Positions 41,268-60,077 of a stretch of 64,000 nucleotides of DNA are shown in pieces; position 1 is the first letter of the stretch, and every line of letters starts with the position of its first letter. Location: the NCBI GenBank assembly GCA_965603515.1, contig CBFDDH010000007.1, positions 1,231 through 65,230 of the forward strand. The letters are read 5' to 3'. The notes below the pieces were generated by a model. That model saw only the letters and a list, made by a program, of their open reading frames with translations. It was not told where the DNA came from and made no database searches. The stretch comes from an uncultured bacterium. GTDB taxonomy: Bacteria > Hydrothermota > Tepidihabitantia > SM23-42. A program made the translations under genes and the position numbers.

Positions 41268-42467
41268 TTACAGAATTATTAGTTTCTTTGTCATTGTTGT
41301 CGTATTTACTCTGAGTCTGACAAAATAAATACCTGAAGTAACGCGCCCCTTTTCCCAGACGTGTTCATGCATACCTACATCTTCAGATTGACTGACCACA
41401 ACATCAATCAGCCTGCCATCTGCAGAATAAATTTCTACACTAACCGGGGTGATTTCTGTCAGTGAATATCTTATGTGCACGATTTCTTTTGTCACATTAG
41501 GAGTAACCGCGAAGTTAGAGATTATAGTCTGCTCTGTTTCTTCCACACCCGGATTAAACGCGTTCTGGTAGTATCTAATATAGCCATCAAAATCACTCGT
41601 TAGGATATCGACCGCACCATCTCCATTGTAATCTATAAAGAAAGGTCTATTGGCTTGATTCCCACCAATGTAGGAACCGCCTGATACCTTTAATGTATCA
41701 CGAACATTGAATATTGGACTGGCATTTGTCCCGACATTCTTGTAGAAGTAAATGTATGTATATTGATCGCCCAAGATAAGATCTTTTAGCCCATCGCCAT
41801 CAAGATCGCAGATCCTCGGGGTAGCTCGATAATGATAGATCGGACTACCACCGCAGTTAATATAACTGAACGTAGTGAAGACAGGGTTCGCATTGGTGCC
41901 TTGGTTAAGATAAAGCCTAACTGTTCCCGTACCAGATTCTGATCCTATTATCAGATCTTTTTTACCATCTTCATTCCAGTCTACCACATCGGGATTAGCA
42001 TTGTTACCCACATCGATCTTTATACCATTTGCCCGCACTGTATCCAACAATGTTAAACCACGAGCTTCCTCTAGATACAACATGGTATAACCGTTTCTGT
42101 CACCGACAAGAATATCTCTTTGTCCATCTTCGTTCCAATCGCACACGGCGATCGCTGAGCCCTGACATCAGGACGCATAGACGGAAATGGGAGATCCGTC
42201 GGCCTGCAAATACTGAAATGAGATGTATGAAGGATCCTCATTTGTCCCGTAATTTTTATAGACACGGACATAGCCAGAAGAATACTGGCCTGTGACCAAA
42301 TCCTTTACATTATCACCATCCCAGTCATAGTAAAATGGAGAGCCGTACCAGGTTACATCGATTATACTCCCATTTGCCAATACATACTCGCCAGTTTCAA
42401 AAACCGGCGTCTGTGCGTGTACTGCAAAGAGAAAACCGATGATTAGTATTGCACATGCAAGTCTCAT
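41268..42467 (-). CDS. Secreted FG-GAP repeat protein with C-terminal sorting-type domain; one 399-aa ORF if TGA 42168-42170 is decoded (putative selenoprotein, motif AS-U-C)
   Basis: Two track ORFs in the same frame; sequence reads ISVYAS*CQGSAIAVCDWNEDG, placing the TGA inside an FG-GAP repeat; GGAGGAG RBS before ATG 42467. Confidence 0.8.
42136..42154 (-). promoter_or_regulatory. SECIS-like stem-loop
   Basis: CGATCGC-CGTGT-GCGATTG; loop 20 nt after TGA. Confidence 0.65.
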
Positions 42468-42676
42468 ATGTTCTCCTCCTTTCTCTACTATAATCATATA
42501 TAAATAGAGTAATTTGTCAAGAGACTTAAGTGCATATCGGCAAAAGCAAGCAGGACTTAACAATCCGGCGTCAAGAGATTGACAATGAATTTAATACATA
42601 AAGAAACCCCTTTGTGAACCTTGACTTTTTACTGAATATTACTATAATACACACTTAACATAAAAGGAGGTATTAT

Positions 42677-44278
42677 ATGTTACTATTGCTTATTATTTTT
42701 GCATTTCCCTCGACATTCGGTAGCAAAGGGATTCTTCGTGCAAAGAGCGGCGATGTAGAGTGGCTATCTGAGGCGCGCTCCATACTGACCATCAGTGTCG
42801 ATGGTGAAGGATACAGATACGATTATGATGATACTCTTTTCGATTATGGAAGTGGAAGGGTCATCATAGGTTACACACCGATCAAACGCTTTGAAGCATA
42901 TACACTGTGGCGTGGTCATGGGGATGGGACCGTGCGTCAACCCTTTGCTGACAGTGATTTCGAGGGTGACCTCGGTGACCTGGATATTGGGGCAAAGGTC
43001 GTGCTCAAGAAGTTCAGAAACTCATACCTGAGCAGTGACCTGGCTCTCACTATACCTATTGGTAGAGAGCAATATTCAAATGATGGCTTCATCATATATC
43101 CAAAAGCTATCTTGACTTTTGACTGCGGCGACTACTGGCGCTTATTTCCAATTCGCATACATCTCAACGCAGGTTTCCCTATTGGCAGAAACGATCTATC
43201 GGACAATTTCCCTGTTACCTTTGTAACTGCGTTTGAACTACCCTCAAAACTATTCACATACTTTATCGAGATAAGCAAAATGCACGAACGCGACTGGAAT
43301 TGGCGTTTTACGCCCGGCTTGAAGCTCCATCCATTCAACAGAATCTGTCTAACCATTGGTGCTGATCTAGGAGCTACTGAAGATTACTGGCTAGTAGGTG
43401 CTAGCGCAGGTCTAGCAGTGAGTTCAGTGCTTGTAAAAGAACGAGAAACACGGCCAACCGGTAATATCGCTGGAGAAATAAGAGATCGTACAACTGATGC
43501 ACCAGTAGCTGCTAATGTTATGCTCCTTGAGCTCGATGAAACCGCATTTGCGAGCGAGAATTTCGGTGTTTACAAGCTTATTGGTGTACCGAGAGGAGTG
43601 TATACGCTGCTGGTACAGGCACCAGGTTACGCTGCTGAAAGCAGAATGGTAATTGTGGAGCGGAATGAAACAAGTGTGCTCAATTTTGATCTAGTACGGG
43701 CTATGGTGACCTATCAGGGTATTGTTCTGAACGCAAGTACCGACCAACCAATAAACAATGCCGCGATATATCTGGAAGGTGAAGCAGGAACCACAGCACT
43801 CACTGATATTGATGGAACATTCGAGGAAGTCCTGAAACCAGGAGCCTATGAACTAAAAGTAAACAAAAAAGAATTTGCCCAATACATCAGCACATTCTCG
43901 ATATATGATGACCGCCAAGATACAATCTGGCTAAAACCTATTGCAGCGATTGATGAAACCCCAGAAGCCATCGTATACTTTAATATTGACGATGCAAACA
44001 TACGCGATGATCAGAAATCAACGCTCAATGATATCGCTGAATTTCTAAAGAGCCATCCAAGTGTGAGATGTGAACTTCGAGGTCATACAGATCCATCTGG
44101 CAATATCGACTATAATGAAATTCTTTCACTCGCACGTGCCAATAGTGTAAAAGACTACCTTGTCAAGGTCTACGGAATTGAAAAACAACGGATTTCAACC
44201 CTGGCATATTCCAGGACAAAGCTCGTTAGAGAAAATCCTGAAAAGAGTAGAAGAGTCGAAATATTCTTAATTAAATAG
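42677..44278 (+). CDS. OmpA-family protein: probable N-terminal beta-barrel, two carboxypeptidase-regulatory-like domains, C-terminal peptidoglycan-binding domain
   Basis: VYFNID..GHTDPSGNIDYNEILSLARA..V..YL..SRRVE. Confidence 0.85.
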   Translation: MLLLLIIFAFPSTFGSKGILRAKSGDVEWLSEARSILTISVDGEGYRYDYDDTLFDYGSGRVIIGYTPIKRFEAYTLWRGHGDGTVRQPFADSDFEGDLGDLDIGAKVVLKKFRNSYLSSDLALTIPIGREQYSNDGFIIYPKAILTFDCGDYWRLFPIRIHLNAGFPIGRNDLSDNFPVTFVTAFELPSKLFTYFIEISKMHERDWNWRFTPGLKLHPFNRICLTIGADLGATEDYWLVGASAGLAVSSVLVKERETRPTGNIAGEIRDRTTDAPVAANVMLLELDETAFASENFGVYKLIGVPRGVYTLLVQAPGYAAESRMVIVERNETSVLNFDLVRAMVTYQGIVLNASTDQPINNAAIYLEGEAGTTALTDIDGTFEEVLKPGAYELKVNKKEFAQYISTFSIYDDRQDTIWLKPIAAIDETPEAIVYFNIDDANIRDDQKSTLNDIAEFLKSHPSVRCELRGHTDPSGNIDYNEILSLARANSVKDYLVKVYGIEKQRISTLAYSRTKLVRENPEKSRRVEIFLIK

Positions 44279-44315
44279 AATATTTGTAACCTCGACAAAC
44301 GCAGTATAGAAAGCA

Positions 44316-44352
44316 ACAACCCCGTACCTTTCTTTGAAAGGTACGGGGTTGT
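44316..44352. terminator. Bidirectional intrinsic terminator
   Basis: 17-bp perfect stem ACAACCCCGTACCTTTC/GAAAGGTACGGGGTTGT between convergent genes. Confidence 0.85.
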
Positions 44353-44369
44353 GTTTAAAAAACAAAACT

Positions 44370-46631
44370 CTATTTTACGAGTATCAGTTTTTCCAGGTAG
44401 TCTGTATTTTCAGTTTTGAGTTTGCAGAAATAGATACCAGCCGAGACTCTATTATCTTTCCCATCAAAACCATCCCATGAGATTTTGTGCGTTCCAGCCT
44501 GTTTGATATCATTAATGAGATTCTTAACCAATCTGCCCTGAATATCATAGATAGACAGTTCGACTGCTGTTTGTCTGGTCAATTGAAAATTCAGTACTGT
44601 CTGCCCTTTTGCCGGATTGGGTTTTGCGAAGAAAACAAACCTACCGATAGATTCTTCTTTGCTTTCTTCAGCGCCAACCAGAAGTGACCAACGGTATGTA
44701 CTACTACCATTTGTACCGGCAAAAATGTAGTTATTAGGATTAACATCAAGGCAATTGATATTCATTACGTCAAGCCCATCGTTCATCGACTCCCACGAAC
44801 TGCCATTATTCGTACTGCGGTACACGCCGTTGCTATAGGTTCCAGCATATATCATCGTGGCATCTGTAGATGTATTATCAATAAGGATTGTATTGGTTCG
44901 GCCACCGCTGAATCCAGTAGTCGCCCATGTCGATCCACTGTCTGTTGATTTATACAGGTTGATCGATGTTCCCGTATACATAATATTTGTATTGTCAGGA
45001 TCAACTACCAGGGCATAGACATAACCAGACAGACCAGTAGTCGGTAATTTTGTCCAGTTACTTCCACTATCAGTCGTTCGGTATATCGCTGAACCGCTTT
45101 CATAACCACCTGCGTACACGATATTCGAATTGCCAGGATCCATAGCCATGGCGTATAAATATCCAGTGCTCGAGCCAATCGTGTACCGCGTCCAACTGTC
45201 TCCTGTATTGGTAGTCTTTGAGACTGACATCTTATACAATGAATCACCGGGGTCGTAATAGCGTCCACCACACCAGAATATCGAATTGTTGCTGTGGTCA
45301 CAAATAAAATCTCCACCATCCGCATAGTAAAGGTCTTTGACGTTCCAGACGGACCCGCCGTCTGTGCTCAAGTAGAGCTCTGAATTGCCTCAGCCCGAGC
45401 CCTCAAAACCAAAAACAAGATCCGGGTCAGTATTGTGTACGCCAAAAGCACACAGCGCGCCGCAGGTTGAAGGCGTCGGCAGCAGGTCCCAGGCAGAACC
45501 GTTATCAGTTGTCTTATAGACACCAACATTTTCAAACTCTGTATACAAGGTTGCTGGTGATGACGGAGCAAGACCGATATCATTTATTTCTCCAAGGTAC
45601 ATTCCGTTTATCGCAGCAGCCCATGTCGTACCCATGGTTGTGGACTTGTAACATCCCGCGTTATTACCAACATACACATTTGAAGTACTAACCGGGCTGA
45701 TCGCTAAGCCCCAAAAGTAGCTACCATCAAGCCCTGAACTAAAAGAAGTCCAGGTAAGCCCAGCATCGGTGCTCCGGTACACTGAAGAATATGCAGTTGA
45801 AAACACAAGATCCGGATCGAGTGATGAGGTTGCCATACGGTAATTATAGAAGTATGTGGAAACCTTCGTCCATGAACCTCCATTGTCAGTCGAACGATAG
45901 ATACCATCAGTGTAAGTACCTGCGTACACGATATTCGAGTTGGTCGGATGAACGGCCATTGAATAAGTATAGTAGCCTGACGTAGCTGCCCAGGTAACAT
46001 CAGTGAAGTTCGAACCGCCGTCAGTTGATTTGAAAACTCTGGGATAGTATGTCGTAGTGACATACTCAGACCCGCCCACGAATATGGTATTCGGTGATGA
46101 CGGATCTATTGCCACACACCAGCCATAGCAATAACTGCCATTACTGAGAACAGTGGTCGTGGTCCATGTCGAACCGCTGTCTGTGCTCTTTATGAATACC
46201 ATATCGTAAACACCAGAGGCAATATATTTCCGACCTGCGCCCACGATAATAGATGGGTCAGCCGGATGCACGGCAAGACCATAAACATAGACGCTTGTTA
46301 CAGTCCCAGATGTCCACGTCGCACCATTGTCAGTCGATTTCCAGACGCGACCATAGTAACCTGAGTATAGATTATCCGATGGGTCAATAGCCATACAATA
46401 GTTGTAACCATTATATGAACCGGTCCTTGTCCATGAGGCACCGGCGTCGATTGATCTAAAAATCTTGCAGGGATACGAATACGAAGCGGCATAGAGAATA
46501 TTCTCATTACTCGGTGAAACCACGACTGAACGGATATTCCCACCTGCAGGTCCAATCGCTTCCCAAGCTCCATATGAGAGGGCACATAAACAAATGAGTG
46601 TTACTACAACTAATACTTTTTGCATAAGCAT
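44370..46631 (-). CDS. Secreted BNR/Asp-box beta-propeller protein with FlgD-Ig/sorting-type C-terminus; one 753-aa ORF if TGA 45390-45392 is decoded (putative selenoprotein, motif SG-U-G)
   Basis: Two track ORFs in the same frame; reads FGFEGSG*GNSELYLSTDGGSVW, so the TGA is inside a blade; many S-T-D-x-G-x-x-W repeats. Confidence 0.8.
45346..45364 (-). promoter_or_regulatory. SECIS-like stem-loop
   Basis: Perfect 7-bp CAGACGG-CGGGT-CCGTCTG; loop 32 nt after TGA. Confidence 0.7.
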
Positions 46632-46820
46632 TCCTCCTCTTGATACTTAAGTATAGTAACAACAGATTATTTGTCAAGTATTAAATTAAGATATACATAT
46701 ATAAGAAAGATGGGATCAAATCCCTAGGGCGTAAACGCCCTACTCCCTATTCTCAATCAGCCTGTCGATATTTAACCCGAACTGCCCCATGTCGAGGATG
46801 TGTTACCCAAATCCCTTTTT

Positions 46821-46920
46821 GTCATTGCGAGCCCTGACCATTAATAATTGCAATGGTTGGGGTGTGGCAATCTCGTTATATTTCATGAGATTACTTCGTC
46901 GCTGCGCTCCTCGTAATGAC
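46821..46920. repeat. Palindromic miniature repeat, copy 3
   Basis: GTCATTGCGAG...GGCAATCTC...GAGATTACTTCG...CTCGTAATGAC. Confidence 0.8.
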
Positions 46921-46990
46921 ATTTTAGAATTCCACATACCTGAATTCGATTTGGGCAACGCGCACTCGAGATTTAACCCCAATTGCCCCC

Positions 46991-47039
46991 TTGACAATTT
47001 CCATTTTTCCAGTATTATGACTGACTAGTCAGTCATAAT
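46991..47039 (+). promoter_or_regulatory. Sigma70-type promoter overlapped by a probable TetR operator
   Basis: TTGACA at 46991, TATTAT at 47013; perfect 26-bp palindrome ATTATGACTGACTAGTCAGTCATAAT at 47014-47039. Confidence 0.85.
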
Positions 47040-47072
47040 TAACTTTTCCAGGAATAAGGAGTCAAAATACAT

Positions 47073-47663
47073 ATGCGAACAAAAGAACAACATACCCGGG
47101 AGAAAATCATAAACTGCGCCCTGAGGATATTCGCCAAAGAAGGTTTTTTCAAAACAACTGTCGATGATATCGCCCAGGCCGCAGGTCTTGCCAAGGGTAC
47201 TCTCTATCTATATTTTAAGGATAAGGCTTCCTTATATGTCAGTGTCATTGAAGAACATTTTAAAACAGGTATCGATTATTTACGTGGAGTTGAAAAAGAA
47301 TCAATAACATCCACAAGAAAACTAAAAAAAATAGCGGATGAGTGGATCGATACCATGATCCGTCTGAAAAGTTCTTTCTTTATGTTCTCCATGGAAAACA
47401 TAAATCTTTCCAGCAAGATCATGAAGGCGGTTAAACCGATAATGAATTTCCGCCTGAAAGAGATGATCGATATTATCGCAAAGATCATTGAACAAGGTAT
47501 CGCAAAAAAAGAATTCAGAAAAATTGAACCGCAGGTCGCAGCCTTGCATTATCTCAACACAATACGTACTGGATTCTTTGTTAATTTCATTGTACCAAAG
47601 AAACAAATAGACAAAAATGAAATACTTGAACTATTTTTTAATGGTTTGAAAAGAAGGAGGTGA
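47073..47663 (+). CDS. TetR/AcrR family transcriptional regulator
   Basis: IFAKEGF..TTVDDIAQAAGLAKGTLYLYFKDK HTH. Confidence 0.95.
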   Translation: MRTKEQHTREKIINCALRIFAKEGFFKTTVDDIAQAAGLAKGTLYLYFKDKASLYVSVIEEHFKTGIDYLRGVEKESITSTRKLKKIADEWIDTMIRLKSSFFMFSMENINLSSKIMKAVKPIMNFRLKEMIDIIAKIIEQGIAKKEFRKIEPQVAALHYLNTIRTGFFVNFIVPKKQIDKNEILELFFNGLKRRR

Positions 47664-47664
47664 T

Positions 47665-48255
47665 ATGAAGAAACTTTGCTTATTGAGTTTACCCCTATTT
47701 GTCGCGGCAGCTAATGGAAACAACGGAATCATGCTTTCCTTTAGTCCCCATTACTCTTATAATTACTTGTATCAAGATGATAAAGATCCAAGAGGTAAGT
47801 GGGGGTTTGGTGGCGAGCTGGAGATAAGGAATTTCATACCACATATAGGTTTGAAACTCAGAGGCAACATGGCAACCTATCCGGCAGTAGCCAGCACAGA
47901 TACTTATGAATATGGATTTATCCCGCTGACGCTATGCACGAGCTTCGACCTTCTCCCCTTTATTGAGCCCACCTGGTTCAGCCTTACGCTTGAAACAGGT
48001 TTTGGACTTTATCTATGGCGTGCTCAAGACAACGGTTCAGTCGTTGTCCTGCCTGATAATACAGAAATGTCAGAAAGGGACGTCGGTTTTGTCGGCGGTT
48101 TATCTCTGCAGGTCAGGCCTTACAAATTGATCGCCTTAGAAATAGCAAGCCGCTTTAATTATATTGCGAGCTCAGACCTTGAGAAATACGGATATTCTGA
48201 CAAAGATGAAAAACTATGGGAAAACGGGGTTGGATTGAAAATAATCATGCCTTGA
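47665..48255 (+). CDS. Outer-membrane beta-barrel protein (8-strand type probable)
   Basis: Signal peptide, alternating aromatic beta strands, terminal GVGLKIIMP. Confidence 0.65.
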   Translation: MKKLCLLSLPLFVAAANGNNGIMLSFSPHYSYNYLYQDDKDPRGKWGFGGELEIRNFIPHIGLKLRGNMATYPAVASTDTYEYGFIPLTLCTSFDLLPFIEPTWFSLTLETGFGLYLWRAQDNGSVVVLPDNTEMSERDVGFVGGLSLQVRPYKLIALEIASRFNYIASSDLEKYGYSDKDEKLWENGVGLKIIMP

Positions 48256-48274
48256 TAAATGTATTGGAGGTAAA

Positions 48275-49546
48275 ATGCTAATAGTGTTAATTTTTTTCAT
48301 GAACATAAGCCTTGGTGATACGCTCAACATCACCATTGAATATGCCATCGAATATGCTCTTGAGAACAACCCGGAGATAGTACAATCAACTCTGGATTTC
48401 AAGACCTCACAAGCGAAAGTTGATGAAGCGCGATCCGTGTTCTACCCCAATATATCAGCCAGTGGATATTATGCTTATCTGAGTGATGTCGCTGTCTTTG
48501 AGTTAGACAGCATGCTCATACCCATGGGACAGCATGAAAACTACAACTACCAGATCTCTCTACAACAGGTTCTTTTCACGTGGGGTAAGATATACAATGC
48601 ATATAGGATTGCTGGTCTTGGTAAAGATGTTGCGCAACTCAATATTATACGAAAGAAACAGGAAGTACGTAATTCAGTAACTGATGCATTTTATGGTCTT
48701 CTCGTACTAAAAGAAATGGTAACGCTCTCGCACGAAAGCTTGCTTCAACTTGAGAGACATGCAAACACAGTTGGAAAAAGGTATAAGGCTGGTCTGGTAC
48801 CTCAATTTGATTTGCTCCGCGCCCAGGTACAGGTGGCAAACCTTAAACCGCAATTGATCGAGGCCGAGAATGGCTTAAAACTGGCTCAGGAGGGGTTTAA
48901 AATGCTTCTGGGGTTACCCCTGCAACAGGAATTCAAACTCACCGGTGAACTGCAAATGGTCGATGAGGAATTCGATATCGATGACCTGATCACAACAGCA
49001 CTTGAAAATCGCATTGAATTGAAGAACCTTAACAAACTCACTGACATTGCAAAATACAGCAAGGCGATTGCGCGTCGCGCAAACCTGCCGACCTTAGTTG
49101 CAGGTGCAACGTATGTACGCACAAAGCCTTTCGGTTTTGGTGGAAATGATTGGGGGACAAATATCACCTTTAATGTCGGTTTTGAATTTCCCATATTCAC
49201 TGGTTTCAAGAATCTTGCTCAATACAAACAAGCAACCCTGCAACTGACAGGAGCAAGGCTTGCATTCGAGAATTTGGAAAAAGGCATTACGTTTGAAGTA
49301 AAACAGGCCTATTACAATCTCCAGGCCGCAAAACAATCCATTGCCGCAGCCCAGGATAATGTTACTCAGGCGGAAAAAACATACAAGATCATCGATATCA
49401 GATACCGCAATGGTTTGGCGACAAACCTGGAATTCATGGACGTTCAACTTGCTGCAATGCAAGCAAGAACAAATTATCTCTCGGCACTGAAGAATTACTA
49501 TACGGCAAAAGCCGAGATCAAAAAAGCAATTGGTAAGGAGGAATAG
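48275..49546 (+). CDS. TolC-family outer-membrane efflux protein
   Basis: ALENNP, FYPNIS, RYKAGL...DLLRAQ, RYRNGLATNLEFMDVQ. Confidence 0.93.
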   Translation: MLIVLIFFMNISLGDTLNITIEYAIEYALENNPEIVQSTLDFKTSQAKVDEARSVFYPNISASGYYAYLSDVAVFELDSMLIPMGQHENYNYQISLQQVLFTWGKIYNAYRIAGLGKDVAQLNIIRKKQEVRNSVTDAFYGLLVLKEMVTLSHESLLQLERHANTVGKRYKAGLVPQFDLLRAQVQVANLKPQLIEAENGLKLAQEGFKMLLGLPLQQEFKLTGELQMVDEEFDIDDLITTALENRIELKNLNKLTDIAKYSKAIARRANLPTLVAGATYVRTKPFGFGGNDWGTNITFNVGFEFPIFTGFKNLAQYKQATLQLTGARLAFENLEKGITFEVKQAYYNLQAAKQSIAAAQDNVTQAEKTYKIIDIRYRNGLATNLEFMDVQLAAMQARTNYLSALKNYYTAKAEIKKAIGKEE

Positions 49547-50431
49547 ATGCGCAAGTTCATAATTATTTCAGTTATAGTAATTGTCTTAGCTGTCGCCGTC
49601 ATAATCAGAGTCGGTGTTCTTAGGAAACCTACCGAACAGGAAGAAGCTGAGAAGATAGTCCCGGTTGAGATCTTTCCGGCACTGACCGGAAATGTACAAA
49701 GTACATGCGAGATCATCGGCACAATAAAGGCAAATAAAACTGCATATGTCTTCCCCGAGACAATGGGTCGAATCACACGTATCCTGGTTAAAGAAGGCAC
49801 TTACGTTAGCAAAGGCAGTAAACTCATGGCTCTGCGTAACGAGACAATAGGTTTTGAATACGAAGAAGGTTACATCACTGCCCCGATCAGCGGCAATATC
49901 GCGAATATCGTAGTCGACAATGGCTCGATGGTCACTCCGCAGTCGTCAGTAGCCATGGTCGTTGAATTTTCAAGGGTCAAGGTTTCCTTCAATGTATCTG
50001 AGAATGCAATGGATTGTATAAACAAAGGCGGCAAAGTTCGCGTTATGGTCGATGCCGCACCTGAGATTCAATTCAACGGCACAGTATCAGAGGTAAGCCC
50101 GATCATTGATCCGTTGACCCGAACTGTGGCCGCCAAGGCAGTCGTTAGTAATCCAAAAAAGATACTGAAACCAGGTATGACCGCTCGCGTAACACTGAAT
50201 TTAGGTTCCAAGGAAAATGTACTGGTGATACCACGCGACGCTTTGCTCGACGGTTATCTATTCATCGTCAAGGACAGTACATCAGAACGCCGCGATGTCA
50301 TTGTTGGTTTAATCGGTGATGAATTCGTGGAGATCCTCGATGGGATAGAAGAAGGCGAGCAGGTCGTGGTAGTCGGACAGCAAAGACTCGCCGGTGGAGA
50401 GAAGATCAATCCGATTCCAAGGAGTGAATAA
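49547..50431 (+). CDS. RND efflux periplasmic adaptor (MFP)
   Basis: ITAPISG, LKPGMTARV, VEILDGIEEGEQVVV. Confidence 0.9.
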   Translation: MRKFIIISVIVIVLAVAVIIRVGVLRKPTEQEEAEKIVPVEIFPALTGNVQSTCEIIGTIKANKTAYVFPETMGRITRILVKEGTYVSKGSKLMALRNETIGFEYEEGYITAPISGNIANIVVDNGSMVTPQSSVAMVVEFSRVKVSFNVSENAMDCINKGGKVRVMVDAAPEIQFNGTVSEVSPIIDPLTRTVAAKAVVSNPKKILKPGMTARVTLNLGSKENVLVIPRDALLDGYLFIVKDSTSERRDVIVGLIGDEFVEILDGIEEGEQVVVVGQQRLAGGEKINPIPRSE

Positions 50432-53400
50432 TGAACCTTACTGAGATATCGATAAAAAGACCTCTTACCGTGCTAATGGTTTTTCTCGGCGTTATACTCT
50501 TCGGCTTTATCTCGGTCACTAACCTGCCGGTCAACCTTTTCCCGGATGTCACCTTTCCCATGATGTTCATTATGACAAGTTATCCCGGTGCAGGTCCGGA
50601 AGAAATAGAAACGCAGATAACTGACCCGCTTGAAAAAAGCCTCGGTACGGTGAATAACCTCGATAAAATGACATCAACGACATCAGAGAACCTTTCTCTG
50701 ATCTTTATGCAATTCGATTGGGGAGCAGATATCGACGCGGCATCAAATGACGTACGCGATGTATTGGGCTTTATAACCCCGTATTTGCCGGAAGACGCAG
50801 ACTACCCGCTCATCTTTAAATTCGATATTTCACAACAACCGGTTGTCATGTATACGGTAGGCGGTGATATCAACCCGCTTGAGCTGGATGAGATCGCTGA
50901 GGGTGTTGCAGATCAGCTCCAGCGTGTGGGCGGTGTTGCCGCATCGTATGCTATGAGCGAAGCCATGAAAGAAGTACAGATAGTACTCGACCCGCTCAGA
51001 CTGAAAGGAACCGGGATAACTTCGGAACAAATCATCAATGCGCTTCGGGCCCAGAACATTAATTATCCACTCGGTAATATAGAAACCGGGAACAAAATTT
51101 ATATCGCAAGAACGATCGGTGAATATGACAACCTCGAGGAGATCAGAAATACGGTTGTTGGTAGTAACAACGGCATACCGATACTGCTCTCCCAGATCGC
51201 TGATGTCCGTTCATCACCATCTGAACAGACCTCTGTCTCGCGAACCAATGGCGTTCGTTCATTATGGGGTTTTGTACAGAAGCGAACTGATGCCAATACG
51301 GTGACGGTCGCGACCGCGGTCGTTAAAGAACTTGAAAAAATAAAAGAAGACCTGCCGCCAGGTGTCCAGGTCGACCTTATTTTTGACCAGGCAGACTTTA
51401 TCAACCGTTCTGTACGCAGTACTGCAGAAACCCTGATCTTCGGTGCGATCCTCGCTATTGTCGTCCTATTTCTTTTCCTTGGCAGTTTCCGCTCAACCCT
51501 GTATATGGCAGTCGCAATACCCATCACCGTCTTTTTCTCTCTCTTTTTCATGTATCTCTCCAATCTCAGTCTCAATATCATCTCACTTGGTGGTCTAACG
51601 ATCGCAATAGGTATGGTCCTCGATTCAGCGATCGTTGTCTTTGAGGCAATATTCCGCCACAAAGAAAAAGGAGAAGATGCCAAAAAAGCTGCGTGCGCTG
51701 GCGCTGAAGAAGTAACCGCCGCGATCACGGCATCGACCATGACCACGGTCGCGGTCTTTTTACCGCTCCTTTTGGTCAGCGGTCTAGCTTCGGTATTCTT
51801 TAAGCCATTAGCACTTACCGTTACCTTTGCTCTTGTCTCGTCTCTTTTAGTGGCCTTAACGATCATCCCGATGCTTTCGGTGCGCTTCAAAACCATGAAA
51901 CGCCGGGCATTTGGTCAACGACTGGCAAATTTCTATGTGCGCGTTGAAAATGTATACACGCGTATCATTAAGTGGGCACTGCAACATAGATTGATGGTAA
52001 TACTCGTCACCCTTGGTGTCTTCGTTGTCAGTCTGGGAGGTCTGGTACCTTTGATAGGCACCGAGTTAACTCCCCAGGTAGACCAGGGCGAGATCATTAT
52101 CAACGCTGAAATGCCAGTCGGTACAAATATGTGGGTAACTGATTCGGCAGTCAAAAAACTTGAAAAGATCGTCGCCGAGGAAGTACCTGAGATCGACATC
52201 ATGTCGACATCAATAGGTGCTGGTTCCGGTGGTATGATGAGTCTATTCATGTCCACCGCGGGTCCTCACTCTGCTCAAATATGGATCGAACTTCCTCATC
52301 GTGAAAAACGTGCGCGTTCAGTCTTCGATATTCAGCGTGACCTGCGACCCAAGATAGAGAATATCATTCCAGGATTAAAAGTAACATACGGTCAGGATGA
52401 TTTCTCCATGTTCGGCGGAGGCGCCGCTATCGAGATCAAAATTTTCGGATATAGCCGCGAAAAAGCAAAGAATATATCTGATGAATTAATAGATACGCTT
52501 CAAACCATTGAAGGACTCGTTGGTCTTGAATCGAGCTTTGGCGAAGGAAAACCAGAATACCAACTGCTCATTGACCGCCGCAAAGCCGCGAACTTTGGAC
52601 TCACACCTTATCAGATCGGCAGCGTCCTGCGTTCACGTCTGGAAGGCACGGTAGCCAGTCAATTCCGAGAACAAGGTAATGAGTATGACATTAAGCTCAT
52701 GATCGACAAAAAATACAGGAATGACCTTAAGAAAGTGATATCGATGACGATAACGACCCCGGTCGGCGAGGTACCATTACAAAATTTTATCAAGGACACA
52801 ATCGCAATAGGACCTGTTTCAATTGACCATGAGGATAATAAACGTATTGTTACGATCACCGGCAGTGTTGAAGGACGCGATATGGGCAGCGTTGCAGCCG
52901 AAGTTCAGAAGATAGTCGATGAAATGCAAAAACCCGCCGATTTCATCGTTGAGATGGGCGGCGGTTATGAAGAACAGATGAACACGTTCAGGGATCTTGG
53001 TTTTGTTATATTACTCGCGCTTGCACTTGTTTACATGATCATGGTCGGGCAGTTTGAATCGTTCAAAGAACCTTTCATTATCATGTTCACAATTCCGCTT
53101 GCTCTCATCGGTGTCGTATGGATGCTCTTTTTTACCGGCACGACGATCAATATGCAAAGCCTGATGGGTGTACTATTGCTCGGCGGTATCGTGGTCAACA
53201 ATGCGATCGTTTATATTACCTATACTAATCAGCTGCGCCGCGAGCAAGGTATGTCGCTTTTTGATTCTGTAGTCGAGGCCGGAAGAGTCCGTCTTAGACC
53301 TATCCTTATGACCGCACTGACCACCAGCTTTGGGTTGATCCCCATGGCACTCGGTATCGGAGCTGGCAGTGAGATGCGTGCGCCCATGGCAAGATCAGTC

Positions 53401-53514
53401 ATCGGTGGATTGTTAATTTCAACATTCCTGACCCTCGTGTTCATCCCCGTAATATACACGCTTTTCGAGCGGAAGAAAAGACCGAAGGAAAACCTGAGAA
53501 AGCAAAGATCATAA
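50431..53514 (+). CDS. RND efflux permease (AcrB/AcrD/AcrF family)
   Basis: SIKRP, GMVLDSAIVVFE, GIVVNNAI, RLRPILMTALTT. Confidence 0.95.
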   Translation: MNLTEISIKRPLTVLMVFLGVILFGFISVTNLPVNLFPDVTFPMMFIMTSYPGAGPEEIETQITDPLEKSLGTVNNLDKMTSTTSENLSLIFMQFDWGADIDAASNDVRDVLGFITPYLPEDADYPLIFKFDISQQPVVMYTVGGDINPLELDEIAEGVADQLQRVGGVAASYAMSEAMKEVQIVLDPLRLKGTGITSEQIINALRAQNINYPLGNIETGNKIYIARTIGEYDNLEEIRNTVVGSNNGIPILLSQIADVRSSPSEQTSVSRTNGVRSLWGFVQKRTDANTVTVATAVVKELEKIKEDLPPGVQVDLIFDQADFINRSVRSTAETLIFGAILAIVVLFLFLGSFRSTLYMAVAIPITVFFSLFFMYLSNLSLNIISLGGLTIAIGMVLDSAIVVFEAIFRHKEKGEDAKKAACAGAEEVTAAITASTMTTVAVFLPLLLVSGLASVFFKPLALTVTFALVSSLLVALTIIPMLSVRFKTMKRRAFGQRLANFYVRVENVYTRIIKWALQHRLMVILVTLGVFVVSLGGLVPLIGTELTPQVDQGEIIINAEMPVGTNMWVTDSAVKKLEKIVAEEVPEIDIMSTSIGAGSGGMMSLFMSTAGPHSAQIWIELPHREKRARSVFDIQRDLRPKIENIIPGLKVTYGQDDFSMFGGGAAIEIKIFGYSREKAKNISDELIDTLQTIEGLVGLESSFGEGKPEYQLLIDRRKAANFGLTPYQIGSVLRSRLEGTVASQFREQGNEYDIKLMIDKKYRNDLKKVISMTITTPVGEVPLQNFIKDTIAIGPVSIDHEDNKRIVTITGSVEGRDMGSVAAEVQKIVDEMQKPADFIVEMGGGYEEQMNTFRDLGFVILLALALVYMIMVGQFESFKEPFIIMFTIPLALIGVVWMLFFTGTTINMQSLMGVLLLGGIVVNNAIVYITYTNQLRREQGMSLFDSVVEAGRVRLRPILMTALTTSFGLIPMALGIGAGSEMRAPMARSVIGGLLISTFLTLVFIPVIYTLFERKKRPKENLRKQRS

Positions 53515-53546
53515 AAGAGCAGAAACCAAAAGATAAAGTCCATAAA

Positions 53547-53573
53547 AAAAGGTCGGGCCCCGCCCGACCTTTT
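53547..53573. terminator. Bidirectional intrinsic terminator
   Basis: AAAAGGTCGGGC-CCC-GCCCGACCTTTT. Confidence 0.85.
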
Positions 53574-53671
53574 CATTCAAAAACAGATCATGTTATCTCA
53601 ACCTCAGAGGATAAGATGATAGTACGGCTAAATCTTACATATCTATAACAAAAAAAGCATGCTGCTTTTCA

Positions 53672-55546
53672 TTACTGAGAGCTATCAGCTGCGGTAAGCG
53701 CAGCTTTGAAATATAAAGCACCTATTCTTTTTTCCCCTATCCTAACACTGAATCCACCCTCATAATAACCATCTTTCTGCCTAACTACGCTTTCGTCATT
53801 TTCAAGGATGTCACCGAGAAATTCACGACCTAAAAACGCATAATCGCTCGAGGCAACTATGACACCATGTCCATCAGTAAAATGCACCAATGATATATCA
53901 GTTACCGCAGCACGTAATTCGCTAATGATCTCTTCAAGCGTGCCTATCTCGTCCATTACCAGCACGTCTTCAACATATGAAGAGTGAGCAATGACCTTAC
54001 CGATACTTTTATACCTTTCAGCACGTAACTCATTCTGGGATCGTGCTTGTTCTTGTTCACTCGTTAGCGCACCAAAATACAGTGCACCGAATTTTTTCTC
54101 TTCGAGTTCGATACTGAAAGCGCACTCATAGAACCGGTCGCGCTGCCGGACTGCATAAGTATCTGGATCAAGGATCTTTGAATTGTACACCGCGCCCATT
54201 GTCCCTGGATCGCTCGAGGCGATCACGGTATTTTGGTCATCAGTAAAATGAACATACGTGATATCTGGTTCATCTTGTCTGAGTTGGTCGATAATCTCAC
54301 TCAATTTTGCCTCGTTACACAAAACGAAAGCATTTTTAACATATGATGAGCCAACGATCAGATTGCCAATCATAGAATACTTACGGGCTGGTGATTCAAT
54401 CGCTATTTGATCATCGGTTGGAGTGCTGACACCGGGGAGTAGAGATTTAATTCGTTCTTTGTGGCGCGGATAGTGAATGGTGAAGTAGTATAACAAAGCC
54501 AGGATCGCGCACGTGATAAACACACCCAAACCGGTATAAAAAATAGCCTGCAGCTTTTTCGTTTTCTTTTTGCCAGTCGTTTTCCCTTCTGGTTTCTGGC
54601 TGAGCTTTGCCTGTTTTGTATCATGAACAGGTTGCGCTTTAATGTTGGCCGGCGGTTCAGGCACATCATCAACGATGTTCATCTTCAGAATATGCGATAT
54701 TTCCCGGCAGCTCTGTGGTCGCTGATGAGGATCTTTAGACAAACACCTCAGGATGAGATGATCCCAGACTTCCGTAATATGCGGGTTTATATCCCCGGGC
54801 GATGGAGGTATTTCCTCCTCTTGCTTGCGCATTATTTCGTAATCAGTGTCACCCTGAAAAGGTACTTGTCCGGTAAGAGCTTCGTAGATAGTTATACCGA
54901 GTGAATAGATATCACTCGGCGTATCGAGTTCCTTACCTCTCACCTGCTCGGGTGACATGTATTTTGGCGTCCCAACAGCAGTCCCGGTCCTCGTAATTTT
55001 TTGATCGCCGACCATCTGGGCGATACCGAAATCAACGAGTTTAGCAATAGATTTTTTAGAAAACATAATATTCGAAGGCTTAATATCACGGTGCACGATG
55101 GAGTGGTCATGAGCAAAACCCAGACCCGACAAAAGCCCCCCAAGAACCGGTGAAAAACTATCGATATCAAAAGCGCCGAATTTCTTGATGTGCTGGGCAA
55201 GCGTCCGGATCTTTTCATCATTAACGCCGATACCTTCGATATATTCCATGACGAAAATATACATACCATTATCTTCAAAAAAATTGTGGATAGTGACGAT
55301 ATTTGGATGGCCGGTCAGTTGCGCGGTCGCCTGTGCTTCGCGCAGAAACCGCTCACAGAACTGAGGGTCAGAAGTAAGCGCCGGTTTCATTATTTTAATG
55401 GCAACAACCTGGTTTATCAAAGTGTGGCGTGCCTTGTAAACGGTCGCCATGCCACCGCTCCCGATCTTACCAATGATCTCGTATTCACGAATCCGTTCAC
55501 CGGGAGCAGGTGTCAATGACGGCAGGGTACTGTCATCATAGTACAT
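53672..55546 (-). CDS. Hanks-type Ser/Thr kinase, one TM, two tandem extracytoplasmic repeats
   Basis: GSGGMATV, VAIK, HRDIKPSN, DFG, GTPKYMSPE, SDIYSLG; two ~105-aa C-terminal repeats. Confidence 0.92.
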   Translation of the reverse strand: MYYDDSTLPSLTPAPGERIREYEIIGKIGSGGMATVYKARHTLINQVVAIKIMKPALTSDPQFCERFLREAQATAQLTGHPNIVTIHNFFEDNGMYIFVMEYIEGIGVNDEKIRTLAQHIKKFGAFDIDSFSPVLGGLLSGLGFAHDHSIVHRDIKPSNIMFSKKSIAKLVDFGIAQMVGDQKITRTGTAVGTPKYMSPEQVRGKELDTPSDIYSLGITIYEALTGQVPFQGDTDYEIMRKQEEEIPPSPGDINPHITEVWDHLILRCLSKDPHQRPQSCREISHILKMNIVDDVPEPPANIKAQPVHDTKQAKLSQKPEGKTTGKKKTKKLQAIFYTGLGVFITCAILALLYYFTIHYPRHKERIKSLLPGVSTPTDDQIAIESPARKYSMIGNLIVGSSYVKNAFVLCNEAKLSEIIDQLRQDEPDITYVHFTDDQNTVIASSDPGTMGAVYNSKILDPDTYAVRQRDRFYECAFSIELEEKKFGALYFGALTSEQEQARSQNELRAERYKSIGKVIAHSSYVEDVLVMDEIGTLEEIISELRAAVTDISLVHFTDGHGVIVASSDYAFLGREFLGDILENDESVVRQKDGYYEGGFSVRIGEKRIGALYFKAALTAADSSQ

Positions 55547-55733
55547 GGCCAATTATAGCAAAATCAATAAACTTGTAAAGATAATATTAAATTGGTCGGG
55601 AATGCTAAGTCTCATAAAAACAAACAGGAATTAAACAAATAGCTCAATTTTTCAGTACACCGTACCAGGTAAAACACCCATGTTTTCTTGACATTGCTGA
55701 GCAGATTACTATACTGTAATAGGAGGTTTTATC

Positions 55734-56735
55734 ATGCGCAAAATATCGTGTATTTTATTGGCTTTGAATGTAATAATCATTAGCATGAGCGGCTGTAAGG
55801 GTGAAAAGGCTACTTTTGTAACGATCGGCACCGGCGGTGTAACCGGTCTCTACTATCCGACCGGTGGTGCACTGAGCCGTATGCTCAATAAACGGGTCAA
55901 AGAATTCAAAATAAAAGCGACCGTCGAATCAACGAGTGGGTCTGTATTCAATATCAATGCCGTACTAACCGGTGATATGGAATTCGGCATCGCCCAGTCT
56001 GACCGGCAGTACCAAGCTTATGAAGGTATGGCTGAATGGTCGAAAGCCGGTCCCCAGATCAGTTTGCGATCGATCTTTGCCATTCACCCCGAACCCATAA
56101 CTCTTGTTGTATCAGAAGATAGCAAGATCGAAACGATCGAAGATCTGAAGGAAAAAAGGATAAATATGGGGAATCCAGGGTCAGGTCAATTGCAGAATTC
56201 AAAAGACGTTTTGTTGGCGGCCAATTTGGATGAAAATGATATATCGACAGAATATGTAAAAGCAGTAGAAGCACCGGGTTTACTCCAGGACGAAAGGCTC
56301 GATGGTTTCTTCTATACTGTGGGGCATCCTAATGGAAATATAAAAGAGGCAACCTCTGGTCGCATTAAAGTCCGCATCATACCGATCACGGGCAAGACCA
56401 GAGATAAGATGTTGGCGAAATATTCATACTATGCAAAGGCGATGATACCTTATTCATTCTATCCCCGCGCTTTGAATAATGAAAATATTCAAACGATCGG
56501 TGTTAAGGCAACTTTTATTACATCAAAGAACGTAAGTGAAGACATTGTTTATGCGATCACTAAAGTTGTCTTTGAAAACTTCGAAGAATTTAAAACCCTT
56601 CATCCAGCATATGAGGTACTAACTAAAGAAAGTATGCTCCAGGGTCTCTCTGCACCACTACATAAAGGAGCTCTGAAATATTACCGGGAAGCCGGTCTCG
56701 ACAAGTACATCGATCCAGCACTGATAATCGACTAG
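55734..56735 (+). CDS. TAXI-family TRAP transporter solute-binding protein
   Basis: IGTGGVTGLYYPTGG, STSGSVFNI, PLHKGALKYYRE. Confidence 0.93.
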   Translation: MRKISCILLALNVIIISMSGCKGEKATFVTIGTGGVTGLYYPTGGALSRMLNKRVKEFKIKATVESTSGSVFNINAVLTGDMEFGIAQSDRQYQAYEGMAEWSKAGPQISLRSIFAIHPEPITLVVSEDSKIETIEDLKEKRINMGNPGSGQLQNSKDVLLAANLDENDISTEYVKAVEAPGLLQDERLDGFFYTVGHPNGNIKEATSGRIKVRIIPITGKTRDKMLAKYSYYAKAMIPYSFYPRALNNENIQTIGVKATFITSKNVSEDIVYAITKVVFENFEEFKTLHPAYEVLTKESMLQGLSAPLHKGALKYYREAGLDKYIDPALIID

Positions 56736-58742
56736 TTGATGGGGGCAATCGGCAGCACAAGGGATAAGCGACGCCTTGACAGAATTATCATAGGTGCTGT
56801 TTCTGTCAGCTGGGCGCTGTTCCAGCTTGCCCTACCCCGTTTTATTATACTCGACAGTATCACGGTCAGGGCGATACACCTTTGCTTTGCTATCAGCCTG
56901 GTCTTTCTGAACCTACCTTTTGCCAAACGGCTGCGCTCATTCAAGTTTTTCAATACAAAGTCTCATATTCCGCTGCTCGATTTTATTCTTGCTGGTGTAG
57001 CATGTCTCGCCGTGTTGTATATAGTATTTGATTGGACCGGGATATCAATGCGCGCCGGCATCCCAAACACACGTGATATCATAATGAGTATAATCCTGAT
57101 TCTTGTCGTGTTTGAGGCTTCACGACGGGTCATTGGCCTGCCTCTGGTCATCATCGCTGTCCTATTCACGCTGTATGCTTTCCTGGCACCTCACATGCCT
57201 AGTTTGTTTGCATTGCGCGGCGTATCCCTGGAAAAATATTTGAGTCAGGTTGCACTGTCAACCGAAGGCATCTATGGCATACCTTTGGACGTTTCAGCAA
57301 ATACGGTTTTTCTATTTGTTTTGCTTGGCGCCATGCTCGAACGAGCTGGTGCGGTTCATTTTTTCAACGACCTTGCGATATCACTGCTTGGCAAATTCAA
57401 AGGTGGTCCAGCTAAAGCTGCGGTCGTAGCAAGTGGACTTACCGGACTTGTTTCAGGATCAAGCATCGCCAATGTTGTCACAACCGGAACTTTTACCATA
57501 CCCTTGATGAAAAAAGTTGGTTATCCTGGAAAGATCGCTGCGGCGACTGAAGTTGCGGCGAGTACAAACGGACAGCTCATGCCGCCAATCATGGGTGCGG
57601 CCGCATTCATTATTGCCGAGTATCTAAGCATACCATACCTTGATGTTGTAAAAGCCGCTGCAATACCTGCCTTTGTTTCCTATTTCGCCCTCTTCTACAT
57701 CACACATCTGGAAGCATCAAAACTCGGCATGCGAGGACTCGACAAGGTAGACATCCCAAGGTTCTGGCAAGTCATGAAAAGAGGTTTCTATTACCTAATC
57801 CCCCTTTTCATGCTGATTTACGAGTTGATGGTTATCCGCCACACGCCAAAATTAGCTGCGTTCAACGCGATCATCGTGCTCATGGTCATCATCGTGTTGC
57901 GTGAAATAATCGCTTCGCTCAAACATGGAACCGGGATTGTACAACCCCTATTCAATAGTCTTAAATTGATCGGTCGCGGTCTTATCTCAGGTTCTCGCAA
58001 TATGCTATCGGTTGCACTGGCAACTGCTTGTGCCGGCATTGTCGTAGGTATTGTCACCATGGGTATCGGCAGCATGATCGTTCAAATCGTTGAGATTCTA
58101 TCGGCTGGTAACATCTTCCTTCTATTATTAATTACCGCGATCGCAAGTTTAATAATCGGTATGGGCTTACCAACAACTGCTACCTATATTGTCATGGCAT
58201 CAATAACTGTCCCTATCATTATCACTCTGAGCGCGCGCAGCGGCATCAGCTATATCCCGGCCATTGCAGCTCATCTGTTTTGTTTCTACTTCGGTATCCT
58301 CGCTGACGACACACCACCAGTCGGCCTTGCTGCTTATAGCGCCGCAGCAATTGCCAAGTCTAACCCCATAGCAACTGGCGTGAAAGGATTTATGTATGAT
58401 CTAAGGACTGCGGTTATCCCATTTATGTTTGTCTTTAACACAGAACTTATTCTCTTTGGCATTCATAACCTCGCTCAAGCACTGCTCATATTTACCATGG
58501 CCGTATTCGGCGCATTTGCTTTTTCAAATGCAGTCCAGGGCTGGTTCATAATCAAGAACGAGTGGTATGAATTCCCCTTATTCCTTATTGCATCGGTCAT
58601 CTTCTTTTTTCCTGCAATCGTGACCAAGCTCTTCAATCTTGACCATAGCCTGCGTTACTACATGTATTTTTTTGGCTTTGCAGTATATGCATTCGCGTAT
58701 CTAATCCAGAAAATTCGAAGTCGAAAAAAGATTCGTCGTTAA
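56736..58742 (+). CDS. TRAP transporter fused 4TM/12TM permease
   Basis: SGSSIANV, EVAASTNGQLMPPIMGAAAF, GMGLPTTA, DDTPPVGLAA. Confidence 0.93.
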   Translation: MMGAIGSTRDKRRLDRIIIGAVSVSWALFQLALPRFIILDSITVRAIHLCFAISLVFLNLPFAKRLRSFKFFNTKSHIPLLDFILAGVACLAVLYIVFDWTGISMRAGIPNTRDIIMSIILILVVFEASRRVIGLPLVIIAVLFTLYAFLAPHMPSLFALRGVSLEKYLSQVALSTEGIYGIPLDVSANTVFLFVLLGAMLERAGAVHFFNDLAISLLGKFKGGPAKAAVVASGLTGLVSGSSIANVVTTGTFTIPLMKKVGYPGKIAAATEVAASTNGQLMPPIMGAAAFIIAEYLSIPYLDVVKAAAIPAFVSYFALFYITHLEASKLGMRGLDKVDIPRFWQVMKRGFYYLIPLFMLIYELMVIRHTPKLAAFNAIIVLMVIIVLREIIASLKHGTGIVQPLFNSLKLIGRGLISGSRNMLSVALATACAGIVVGIVTMGIGSMIVQIVEILSAGNIFLLLLITAIASLIIGMGLPTTATYIVMASITVPIIITLSARSGISYIPAIAAHLFCFYFGILADDTPPVGLAAYSAAAIAKSNPIATGVKGFMYDLRTAVIPFMFVFNTELILFGIHNLAQALLIFTMAVFGAFAFSNAVQGWFIIKNEWYEFPLFLIASVIFFFPAIVTKLFNLDHSLRYYMYFFGFAVYAFAYLIQKIRSRKKIRR

Positions 58743-58784
58743 ATCAATGATTAACTGGTCTTCGTGTTGGCAAAGTCTCGGAGA

Positions 58785-60077
58785 CTAACGAACTTTGACT
58801 ATCTTTTGCATTATTTTGCCGTCTATCTCAATAAAATAAATGCCGGGCTGTACGTGCAAAACATCGATCTGTCGCCCGGTGATATCGTAGACATCACACT
58901 TCTTACCGGCAGGTAAGTACAACGGTCCGCTGATTATTGTAGCATGGAAGAATTCGTTATCTTGCCAAAAACCTGGTGTCTGTTCTACACCGAGTTGAAT
59001 ATCCAAATTACCAAATATATCATAGTTACCCCCGCAGAATTGTTGCCAGGCCACCAAAGACTCAGCATTACCGATCGCCAAAGACGGGAAATCGCGGGTG
59101 CAACTTACTGTATCTGAAATCCGGAAGTTGCTGCCAACAAGTTCCCCTGACATTGATACGCGCTGGCCAAAAATGGCGCAGTCCTGGCTCCACACCACAA
59201 GATAAAAACTATCACCAGCGCAGACGCGTGCTCCGTATTGATAGGGAGAATCATCTGCAATGGCGATAGCAGCGCCGATCAGATCGCCATCTACTGAAAC
59301 GAGCTGTCCATACACATCATCATCATAGTATGGTGACGGCTCGTTCCAAACAACCAGATAACTACTATCACCAAAAGCAATATCCGGGTCTAATAGGGCA
59401 TCCTCTGACAATACTCTGATGACAAACTCATGATCTTCAGGCTGACATTCAGAGTTTATGAATCGACCGAAAAGACCAGCTGGGTTATGGTTATAGTTAT
59501 ACCAAACCGCAAAATACCGCTCACCATCAAAAGCTACGGCTGGTCGGTATTCACAATAAGCCCCCATGCCAAAAACCACACCAGAATCAAGAACTGCGCC
59601 GTCAGGGGTCACACGCGCTGCCTGAACCTTGTATTCACCGCCAAAAGTACCGTCTGACCAGACTACCAGGTAATTATCACCACCAAAAACGATATCTGGT
59701 TCGCGCGAGACTTCGCTATCAGCTTTCACAAGTATCGTGTTTAGCATCTGAAGCTCTGGAGTGACCCGCACCCCGATTATATTTCCGATATTTCAACAAC
59801 CGTAGCGGAAAACAAATAGAAGGTTCTGTCCATCATAGGCAGTACGGATACCGTATGTTGAATACCCTTGATAAAAGAATACGCCGGTCGAGTCAATCAC
59901 CGTGCCGTCTGGTTTCACGCGTGCACCATAAATTGACATTGACTGCCGGAAATCTGACCAGAACACATAATATAAACTGTCAACAAAGATAACACTTGGC
60001 TGAAATTGAGATTCCGAGTGTCCACATATAGTGAAATCAGCATTTATAAAAACTAAACATAAGCTAAGTAGAAACAT
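58785..60077 (-). CDS. Secreted beta-propeller-like repeat protein with C-terminal sorting-type domain; one 430-aa ORF if TGA 59793-59795 is decoded (putative selenoprotein, motif GC-U-N)
   Basis: Two track ORFs in the same frame; reads FRYGC*NIGNIIGVRVTPE; the repeat unit YLVVW..I.G.RV..DG occurs on both sides; the only signal peptide is upstream of the TGA. Confidence 0.8.
59758..59774 (-). promoter_or_regulatory. SECIS-like stem-loop
   Basis: GGGGTG-CGGGT-CACTCC (one G-U pair); loop 24 nt after TGA and identical to the loop at 45353-45357. Confidence 0.62.

Follow-up and report, generated by a model that had tools for sequence, protein, structure and literature searches.

CGKGU-loop hairpins behind in-frame UGA codons of a Candidatus Stahlbacteria genome are very probably ordinary bacterial SECIS elements

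The stretch of DNA analysed here (the window: 64,000 nucleotides, C7:1231-65230) belongs to a 2.47-Mb assembly (81 contigs, 41.7% G+C) of an uncultured bacterium of Candidatus Stahlbacteria (WOR-3), whose close relatives carry the label Candidatus Stahlbacteria as metagenome-assembled genomes. Its minus strand holds three hairpins with the apical loop CGKGU (K being G or U), each shortly past an in-frame UGA codon, and the original prediction read this loop as a lineage-specific consensus of selenocysteine insertion sequence (SECIS) elements. Sequence comparisons within this genome and across its order point to another reading, in which the three hairpins are very probably ordinary bacterial SECIS elements and CGKGU is one spelling of a general motif. 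That they are maintained by selection as RNA, as first proposed, is supported because synonymous sites covary within them and because the other Asp-boxes of the same gene do not fold.

Three hairpins behind in-frame UGA codons

The hairpins lie in genes of three unrelated protein families, here called A, B and C, and start 13-25 nt past the in-frame TGA of a long coding frame. Both the sequence and the RNAfold minimum-free-energy structures contain all three, with the loops CGUGU (family C), CGGGU (family A) and CGGGU (family B). They encode different peptides (AIAVCDW in family C, TDGGSVW in family A and GVRVTP in family B), and the first base of the loop is the third position of a codon in families A and C and the first in family B, so the description of the hairpins at 45353 and 59764 as differing in codon phase was accurate.

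The general bacterial model (bSECISearch, Zhang and Gladyshev 2005, as summarised in the Fig. 2 legend of PMC13188914) has a loop of 3-9 nt, a stem of 4-16 bp, 16-37 nt between UGA and loop, a minimum free energy of -7.5 kcal/mol or lower and a G within the first two loop positions, mostly as N1-G-[G/U]-N-N2 with N1 and N2 paired. In families C, A and B respectively the stems have 7, 7 and 6 bp, all three loops are of 5 nt with G as their second base, the loop starts 21, 33 and 25 nt after the UGA, and the minimum free energy is -8.7, -17.5 and -7.5 kcal/mol, the family B copy standing exactly at the limit of the model.

The genome carries the selenocysteine (Sec) machinery that would use such elements, namely tRNA-Sec, SelB and SelD. 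The single tRNA-Sec adjoins selB on contig C13, and this selB scores above the TIGR00475 cut-off, is the only canonical SelB of the genome and aligns along its entire length with E. coli SelB (5lzb, E 9e-74), with Aquifex SelB aligned likewise; selD is itself a UGA gene. Since the single canonical SelB adjoins the single tRNA-Sec, one reader presumably serves all three hairpins, and to this extent the proposal of one SelB-like reader holds. Reassignment of TGA was rejected because 645 well-supported, high-scoring open reading frames (ORFs) terminate in this codon. Moreover, coding scores are positive on both flanks of the TGA, and hundreds of homologs across 41 genomes retain exactly one TGA with coding frames open on either side; in family C this single TGA is kept at the U132 position in 19 of the 41 related genomes.

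A scan of both strands for hairpins with a CGKGT loop and a stem of at least 5 bp returned 24 genome-wide. An in-frame Sec-type TGA precedes nine of them, with 98-419 open codons upstream and 299-348 downstream, although these nine matches represent only three paralog families. True stops and shuffled sequence had been named as controls. At +8 to +60, such hairpins followed none of 644 terminal TGA, 818 TAA or 511 TAG stops, compared with 9 of the 28 Sec-UGAs found by codon usage (see below), so at the true stops the outcome named as a refutation did not appear. In 12 dinucleotide shuffles the total proved ordinary (24 versus 19.4 +/- 3.3), and it was the hairpins with a TGA 9-30 nt upstream that exceeded expectation (16 observed versus 6.3 +/- 2.7). 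When any hairpin of at least 6 bp was counted, 26 of the 28 Sec-UGAs had one versus about 19% of the terminal TGA stops. From these stop, shuffle and hairpin comparisons we conclude that the hairpins are specific to recoded UGAs.

Loop variation in the genome and its relatives

Sec sites were sought with a codon-usage scan for TGAs having coding sequence on both sides. Its coding-potential threshold was relaxed from 0.25 bits per codon, at which all true sites were lost, after calibration on the window. The scan gave 28 credible sites, and a generalised motif scan, described below, added two UxxC candidates. Of the 28, six belong to family A and five to family B; family C accounts for three, family D (UGSC motif) and family E (HC-U-G, with one family E site in the window) for four each and family F for two, and the rest are two HdrA-type genes, selD and one gene of a family termed X1 (G000:C1:32882(-)); the TGAs stand in C-U, U-C and UxxC motifs. 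Two other candidates were discarded, C8:39361 having downstream a glycerate-kinase-like gene with its own start and C11:36347 lying in a low-complexity Gly/Ser/Ala stretch.

By eye, CGKGU is present at 11 of the 30 Sec sites and missing from 19, including selD and both HdrA genes. Family A has CGGGU in five copies and CGGGA in one, family B CGUGU in four and CGGGU in one, and family C CGUGU in the window copy only, the other two having A-GUU-U. Comparison with known selenoproteins of the same genome, which had been suggested as a check, revealed other loops (AGUUA in selD, C[GGUC]G in both HdrA genes). The loops of family D are G-GGA-C, G-GUA-C and CGGGA and that of family F is C[GGC]G, while family E has A[GGUC]U, its gene at 36689 (+) being a counter-example to CGKGU within the window itself.

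Relatives were then added by collecting the same eight families in 40 other genomes of the order, which gave 286 non-identical elements. The second loop base was G in 286/286 and the third G or U in 285/286. Position 1 was complementary to position 4 in 234 elements and to position 5 in 46, one more had a G:U pair between positions 1 and 4, and five were unpaired; pairing with one or the other position thus covers 98%. By layout, 190 were N1-G-K-N1'-N5, 44 were tetraloops and 46 triloops. CGKGU itself was found in 123 (43%), in families A, B and C only, and in none of the 41 genomes did families D, E, F, selD or HdrA carry it. Orthologs of families A to C replace it with AGGUU, UGGAA, GGUCU, AGUUU, CGGGA or CGGCG. 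In every relative the loop of selD is AGUUR, that of HdrA and family E is GGUC, and family F shows CGGCG, CGGGA, AGGCU, AGUUG, AGUCU and CGUUG.

Family C shows the covariation most directly. Position 1 of its loop is the wobble base of an Ala codon and position 4 that of the next Val codon, and in 24 relatives the two are A:U in 13, G:C in six, C:G in four and otherwise in one (95.8% paired), with the codon pairs GCA GUU, GCG GUC and GCC GUG. The covariation score was reached by none of 500 shuffles, and a triloop model with positions 1 and 5 paired fitted worse (79% versus 96% of cells paired). On the protein tree the state of this pair changes at least five times and the C:G state is limited to the genus-level clade of the window, so the CGUGU of the window is a recent flip of the loop-framing pair.

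A divergent subfamily of family C (U-C-T-G-A-T-N-P-Q...; loci L082, L083 and L282) has lost the AVCDW hairpin and has another, AAUCCRCA-GGN-UGUGGAUU, at a similar distance, so that its SECIS has been rebuilt from new coding sequence.

In each of the rare variants of family A, AGGUU (four), UGGAA, CGGAG, CGGCG and AGGAU, position 1 is still the complement of position 4 or 5, and a change of Asp to Asn in the stem (GAC to AAC) is matched by GUC to GUU. Only one of the 12 Asp-boxes in the family A gene folds strongly, the one after the UGA (-10.9 versus -0.9 to -6.5 kcal/mol). The Asp-box STDGGSNF, with the same TDGGS core, uses other codons and does not fold. In about 90 of 92 relatives family B writes its Arg as CGU or CGG, two sequences have changed to Gly-Leu, giving GGUCU, and the stems across the 92 relatives show the compensating changes expected of a SECIS structure. 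In another family of the phylum two synonymous Val changes have flipped the pair closing the family B stem, with CGUGU retained as the loop. Of the two hairpins of family X1, the second (C[GGU]G or C[GUC]G) is better conserved than the first (loop GCUAA), and we take it to be the SECIS proper.

These patterns suggest how the elements may work. Each hairpin lies inside the coding region, just past a UGA very probably read as Sec, in the gene of a secreted protein. The apical motif would be N1-G-K-N1'-(N5), of which CGKGU is one version, and its G2 and K3, if they act as G23 and U24 do in E. coli fdhF, would be the bases that SelB reads. The partner of N1 would be either position 5 or position 4, with position 5 then free; the 1:4 pair is suggested by the covariation, and C:G, G:C, A:U and U:A framing pairs replace one another in evolution. 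What the codons allow differs between the families. In family B, coding for Arg-Val fixes G4 and U5, which would force C1 and leave only CGU or CGG for Arg. N1 and N4 of family A are both Gly wobble positions and covary freely, and in family C the CGUGU of the window would have arisen recently from GGUCU through an N1:N4 flip. The likeness of the three genes would then follow from a universal SelB requirement combined with codon constraints, not from a lineage consensus.

The positions of the four Sec genes of the window and of their hairpins are collected in Table 1.

Table 1. Predicted Sec genes of the window and their hairpins
Feature	Position	Strand	Description
Family C read-through ORF	41268..42563	-	431 codons; FG-GAP_3 repeats and Por_Secre_tail (type IX secretion sorting domain)
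Family C in-frame UGA (U132)	42168..42170	-	followed by Cys (UC motif); sequence reading
Family C SECIS hairpin	42136..42154	-	stem CGAUCGC/GCGAUUG, loop CGUGU 42147-42143; RNAfold
Family A read-through ORF	44370..46631	-	753 codons; Sortilin-Vps10/BNR-type propeller and Por_Secre_tail
Family A in-frame UGA (U414)	45390..45392	-	GSG-U-G context; sequence reading
Family A SECIS hairpin	45346..45364	-	stem CAGACGG/CCGUCUG, loop CGGGU 45357-45353; encodes Asp-box TDGGSVW
Family A small spacer hairpin	45366..45378	-	GCUC-UACUU-GAGC, between UGA and SECIS proper; fold
Family B read-through ORF	58785..60077	-	430 codons; type IX-like C-terminal tail by eye
Family B in-frame UGA (U95)	59793..59795	-	C-U motif; sequence reading
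Family B SECIS hairpin	59758..59774	-	stem GGGGUG/CACUCC, loop CGGGU 59768-59764; encodes GVRVTP
Family E in-frame UGA (fourth Sec gene)	36689..36691	+	HC-U-G; codon-usage scan
Family E SECIS hairpin	36705..36722	+	loop GGUC 36712-36715, A-U closed as in E. coli fdhF

A domain search with the family B protein of the window (ORF 58785-60077) gave no Pfam match. It is nevertheless one of the most expanded families: the genome of a relative can hold as many as dozens of copies, among them TGA-free tandem repeats within proteins of ~900 aa. An Rfam scan of window positions 36000-61000, at E up to 10, matched no SECIS family and returned only weak terminator-like matches. Those to MicC, SorX, rliG and Atu_C9, at 53496-53732, all fall on one G+C-rich hairpin with a U-run between convergent ORFs; rather than a small RNA, this hairpin most likely forms an intrinsic terminator working in both directions.

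Limits of the evidence and competing readings

Several points weigh against reading the hairpins as plain examples of the general motif. The loops of relatives were taken at fixed offsets and kept only where the flanking stem was paired, and the sequences are related by descent. Two family B rows without G2 were removed as spurious ORF contexts, and because of this removal and the loop filtering the 100% figure for G2 is slightly circular. A Watson-Crick pair around only two nucleotides is sterically unusual, so the 1:4 covariation may reflect the SelB-bound state or another constraint and not a pair in the free RNA. In family A, C1 and G4 are strongly preferred at synonymous sites (39/47), and a mild preference for the C:G version of the loop may be at work. 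The folding z-scores of the three single sequences against shuffles are unremarkable (+0.86, -1.6 and -0.16); such scores are uninformative for these short G+C-rich hairpins, and the case therefore rests on comparative evidence and not on thermodynamic stability. Finally, SelB binding and Sec insertion are predicted for this uncultured organism.

A stronger form of the same idea, that the SelB target in Stahlbacteria is a G-K platform clamped by a covarying Watson-Crick pair between positions 1 and 4, usually with one unpaired base, and possibly a distinct subclass tuned to the SelB of this lineage, is one we hold only tentatively and think rather unlikely. Going further, loops of the N1-G-K-N1'-N5 layout, such as CGKGU and the AGUUR of selD, could make up a SECIS class with a function of its own, to which the expanded secreted families would be partial and in which the unpaired base might either take the role of the bulged U17 of E. 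coli or tune efficiency. This layout outnumbers the tetraloops and triloops and is stable within families A, B and C and selD. N5, however, is not conserved, with U, A, G and C all found, it is dictated by the amino acid in families B and C, and pairing switches between 1:4 and 1:5 within families A, D and F, which makes such a class improbable.

We consider it still less probable, and already largely refuted, that C-G-(G/U)-G-U is required or strongly preferred by the SelB of Stahlbacteria and is the right pattern for finding hidden selenoproteins. The idea draws on a loop that recurs in three unrelated families and two codon phases, at over a third of the Sec sites of the genome and in 123 elements of the order, that keeps C1 and G4 at the synonymous sites of family A and that never follows true stops. 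However, most Sec sites lack it, those of the housekeeping selD and HdrA genes included, as do whole families in every genome compared, and isosteric variants substitute for it in orthologs at positions 1, 4 and 5. What does not vary matches the general bacterial model and also the fdhF layout, and the CGKGU scan of the genome returned only paralogs of families A, B and C and no new family.

Least probable of all is that the hairpins are by-products of peptide motifs and paralogy without selection on RNA, or that the TGAs are real stops, pseudogene lesions or a reassigned codon: the loops do overlap conserved peptides (the Asp-box, GVRVTP and AVCDW), the matches are paralogs and the z-scores are not significant, but pairing is kept by covarying synonymous positions, identical peptides written elsewhere in the gene with other codons do not fold, and the genes ending in TGA, the single TGA conserved between open frames and its place in C-U, U-C and UxxC motifs speak against a stop, a lesion or a reassignment.

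Known SECIS elements and the search for selenoproteins

With these alternatives weighed, the reading of the hairpins as ordinary SECIS elements agrees with what is known from other bacteria. Known elements have stems of 6-8 bp with the conserved loop G ~20 nt past the UGA (PMC4605307). Compared with the general model, nothing essential differs here: an in-frame UGA is followed by a hairpin in the coding region, with stems of 6-8 bp, loops of 3-5 nt, a loop G followed by G or U between paired flanking bases and a minimum free energy no higher than -7.5 kcal/mol. Counted from the U of the UGA, the distance to this G is 25-37 nt in the eight main families, as in the model. Family X1 departs from it, its G at ~46 nt standing outside the 16-37 nt range behind an extra hairpin.

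In E. coli fdhF (upper stem-loop GGUUGCA-GGUC-UGCACC), G23, U24 and the bulged U17 are essential (PMC8659212), and this element matches 5,419 of 5,426 genomes at 95% identity or more, with the loop G22-G23-U24-C25. Here too the apical G-K lies between complementary bases, G22:C25 in fdhF and C1:G4 in CGKGU, and the GGUC loop of family E and HdrA is identical to that of fdhF. As in E. coli, a single SelB with C-terminal winged-helix domains is present. In CGKGU, unlike fdhF, the framing pair is reversed (C:G versus G:C) and one extra unpaired base follows on the 3' side; the hairpins also have no bulged U on the 5' arm and a wider spacing than in E. coli, where 11 nt separate UGA and stem. The complex of Moorella thermoacetica SelB WH3/4 with its SECIS (PDB 1WSU and 2UWM; cited in PMC4605307) offers a structural precedent for winged-helix domains gripping the apex of a short coding-region hairpin.

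Where the loop lies farthest from the UGA, in family A (G at +37) and in X1 (G at about +46), a second small conserved hairpin fills the spacer. Relatives show compensating changes in it, in family A for example GCUCU-ACA-AGAGC and GCUU-AUA-AAGC, and such a hairpin may shorten the physical distance to the SECIS apex.

CGKGU alone is unsuitable for scans of WOR-3 genomes, because a lineage-specific SECIS code is not supported, and such a scan would miss about two thirds of the Sec sites, selD among them. A generalised rule, N1-G-K-N1'(+/-N5) or N1-G-K-N-N1' on a stem of at least 5 bp, 12-40 nt past the TGA, is a more useful search pattern. It matches 27 of the 30 Sec sites, compared with 1.4% of terminal TGA, 1.0% of TAA and 1.2% of TAG stops and 1.2% of all TGA triplets, and it yielded the two further UxxC candidates. 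Both lie outside the window and have a signal peptide: G000:C3:77439(-) reads FTEDN-U-GFC with the loop C[GGA]G, and G000:C14:8095(-) reads TRVGG-U-PYC with the loop A[GG]U and encodes 608 aa with a type IX-like tail. A small ORF elsewhere in the genome (G000:C10:27810(-), MPKDKVMSA-U-SSVINASV...) has a 6-bp hairpin with the selD-type loop AGUUG 14 nt past its TGA and could be a small selenoprotein or a chance match.

Altogether the 2.47-Mb genome has at least 30 probable Sec-UGA genes, four of them in the window (36689(+), 42170(-), 45392(-) and 59795(-)). About 27 encode proteins with signal peptides, mostly with a type IX secretion tail, and the secreted families are multi-copy with the TGA preserved across the whole order. 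A literature search linking WOR-3/Stahlbacteria, selenoproteins and type IX secretion returned nothing relevant among the papers available to it.

The pooled loop covariation is a modest refinement of the known model, and the hairpins belong to the known bacterial kind of SECIS. Nevertheless, the 286 coding-region hairpins amount to a natural experiment, in which G-K is fixed and the framing bases covary at synonymous codon positions, and which independently supports the general bacterial SECIS model with a geometry of the E. coli type. Should the G-K platform be real, its layout would cover CGKGU, the AGUUR of selD, GGUCU and AGUUU, and the geometry of the SECIS apex in its bound state would have comparative evidence behind it. 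With a covariance model of this layout, scans might then expose large secreted selenoproteomes that annotation pipelines split at the UGA. Genomes such as this one hold many selenoprotein genes, apparently unannotated, most of them encoding secreted proteins with a type IX secretion tail.

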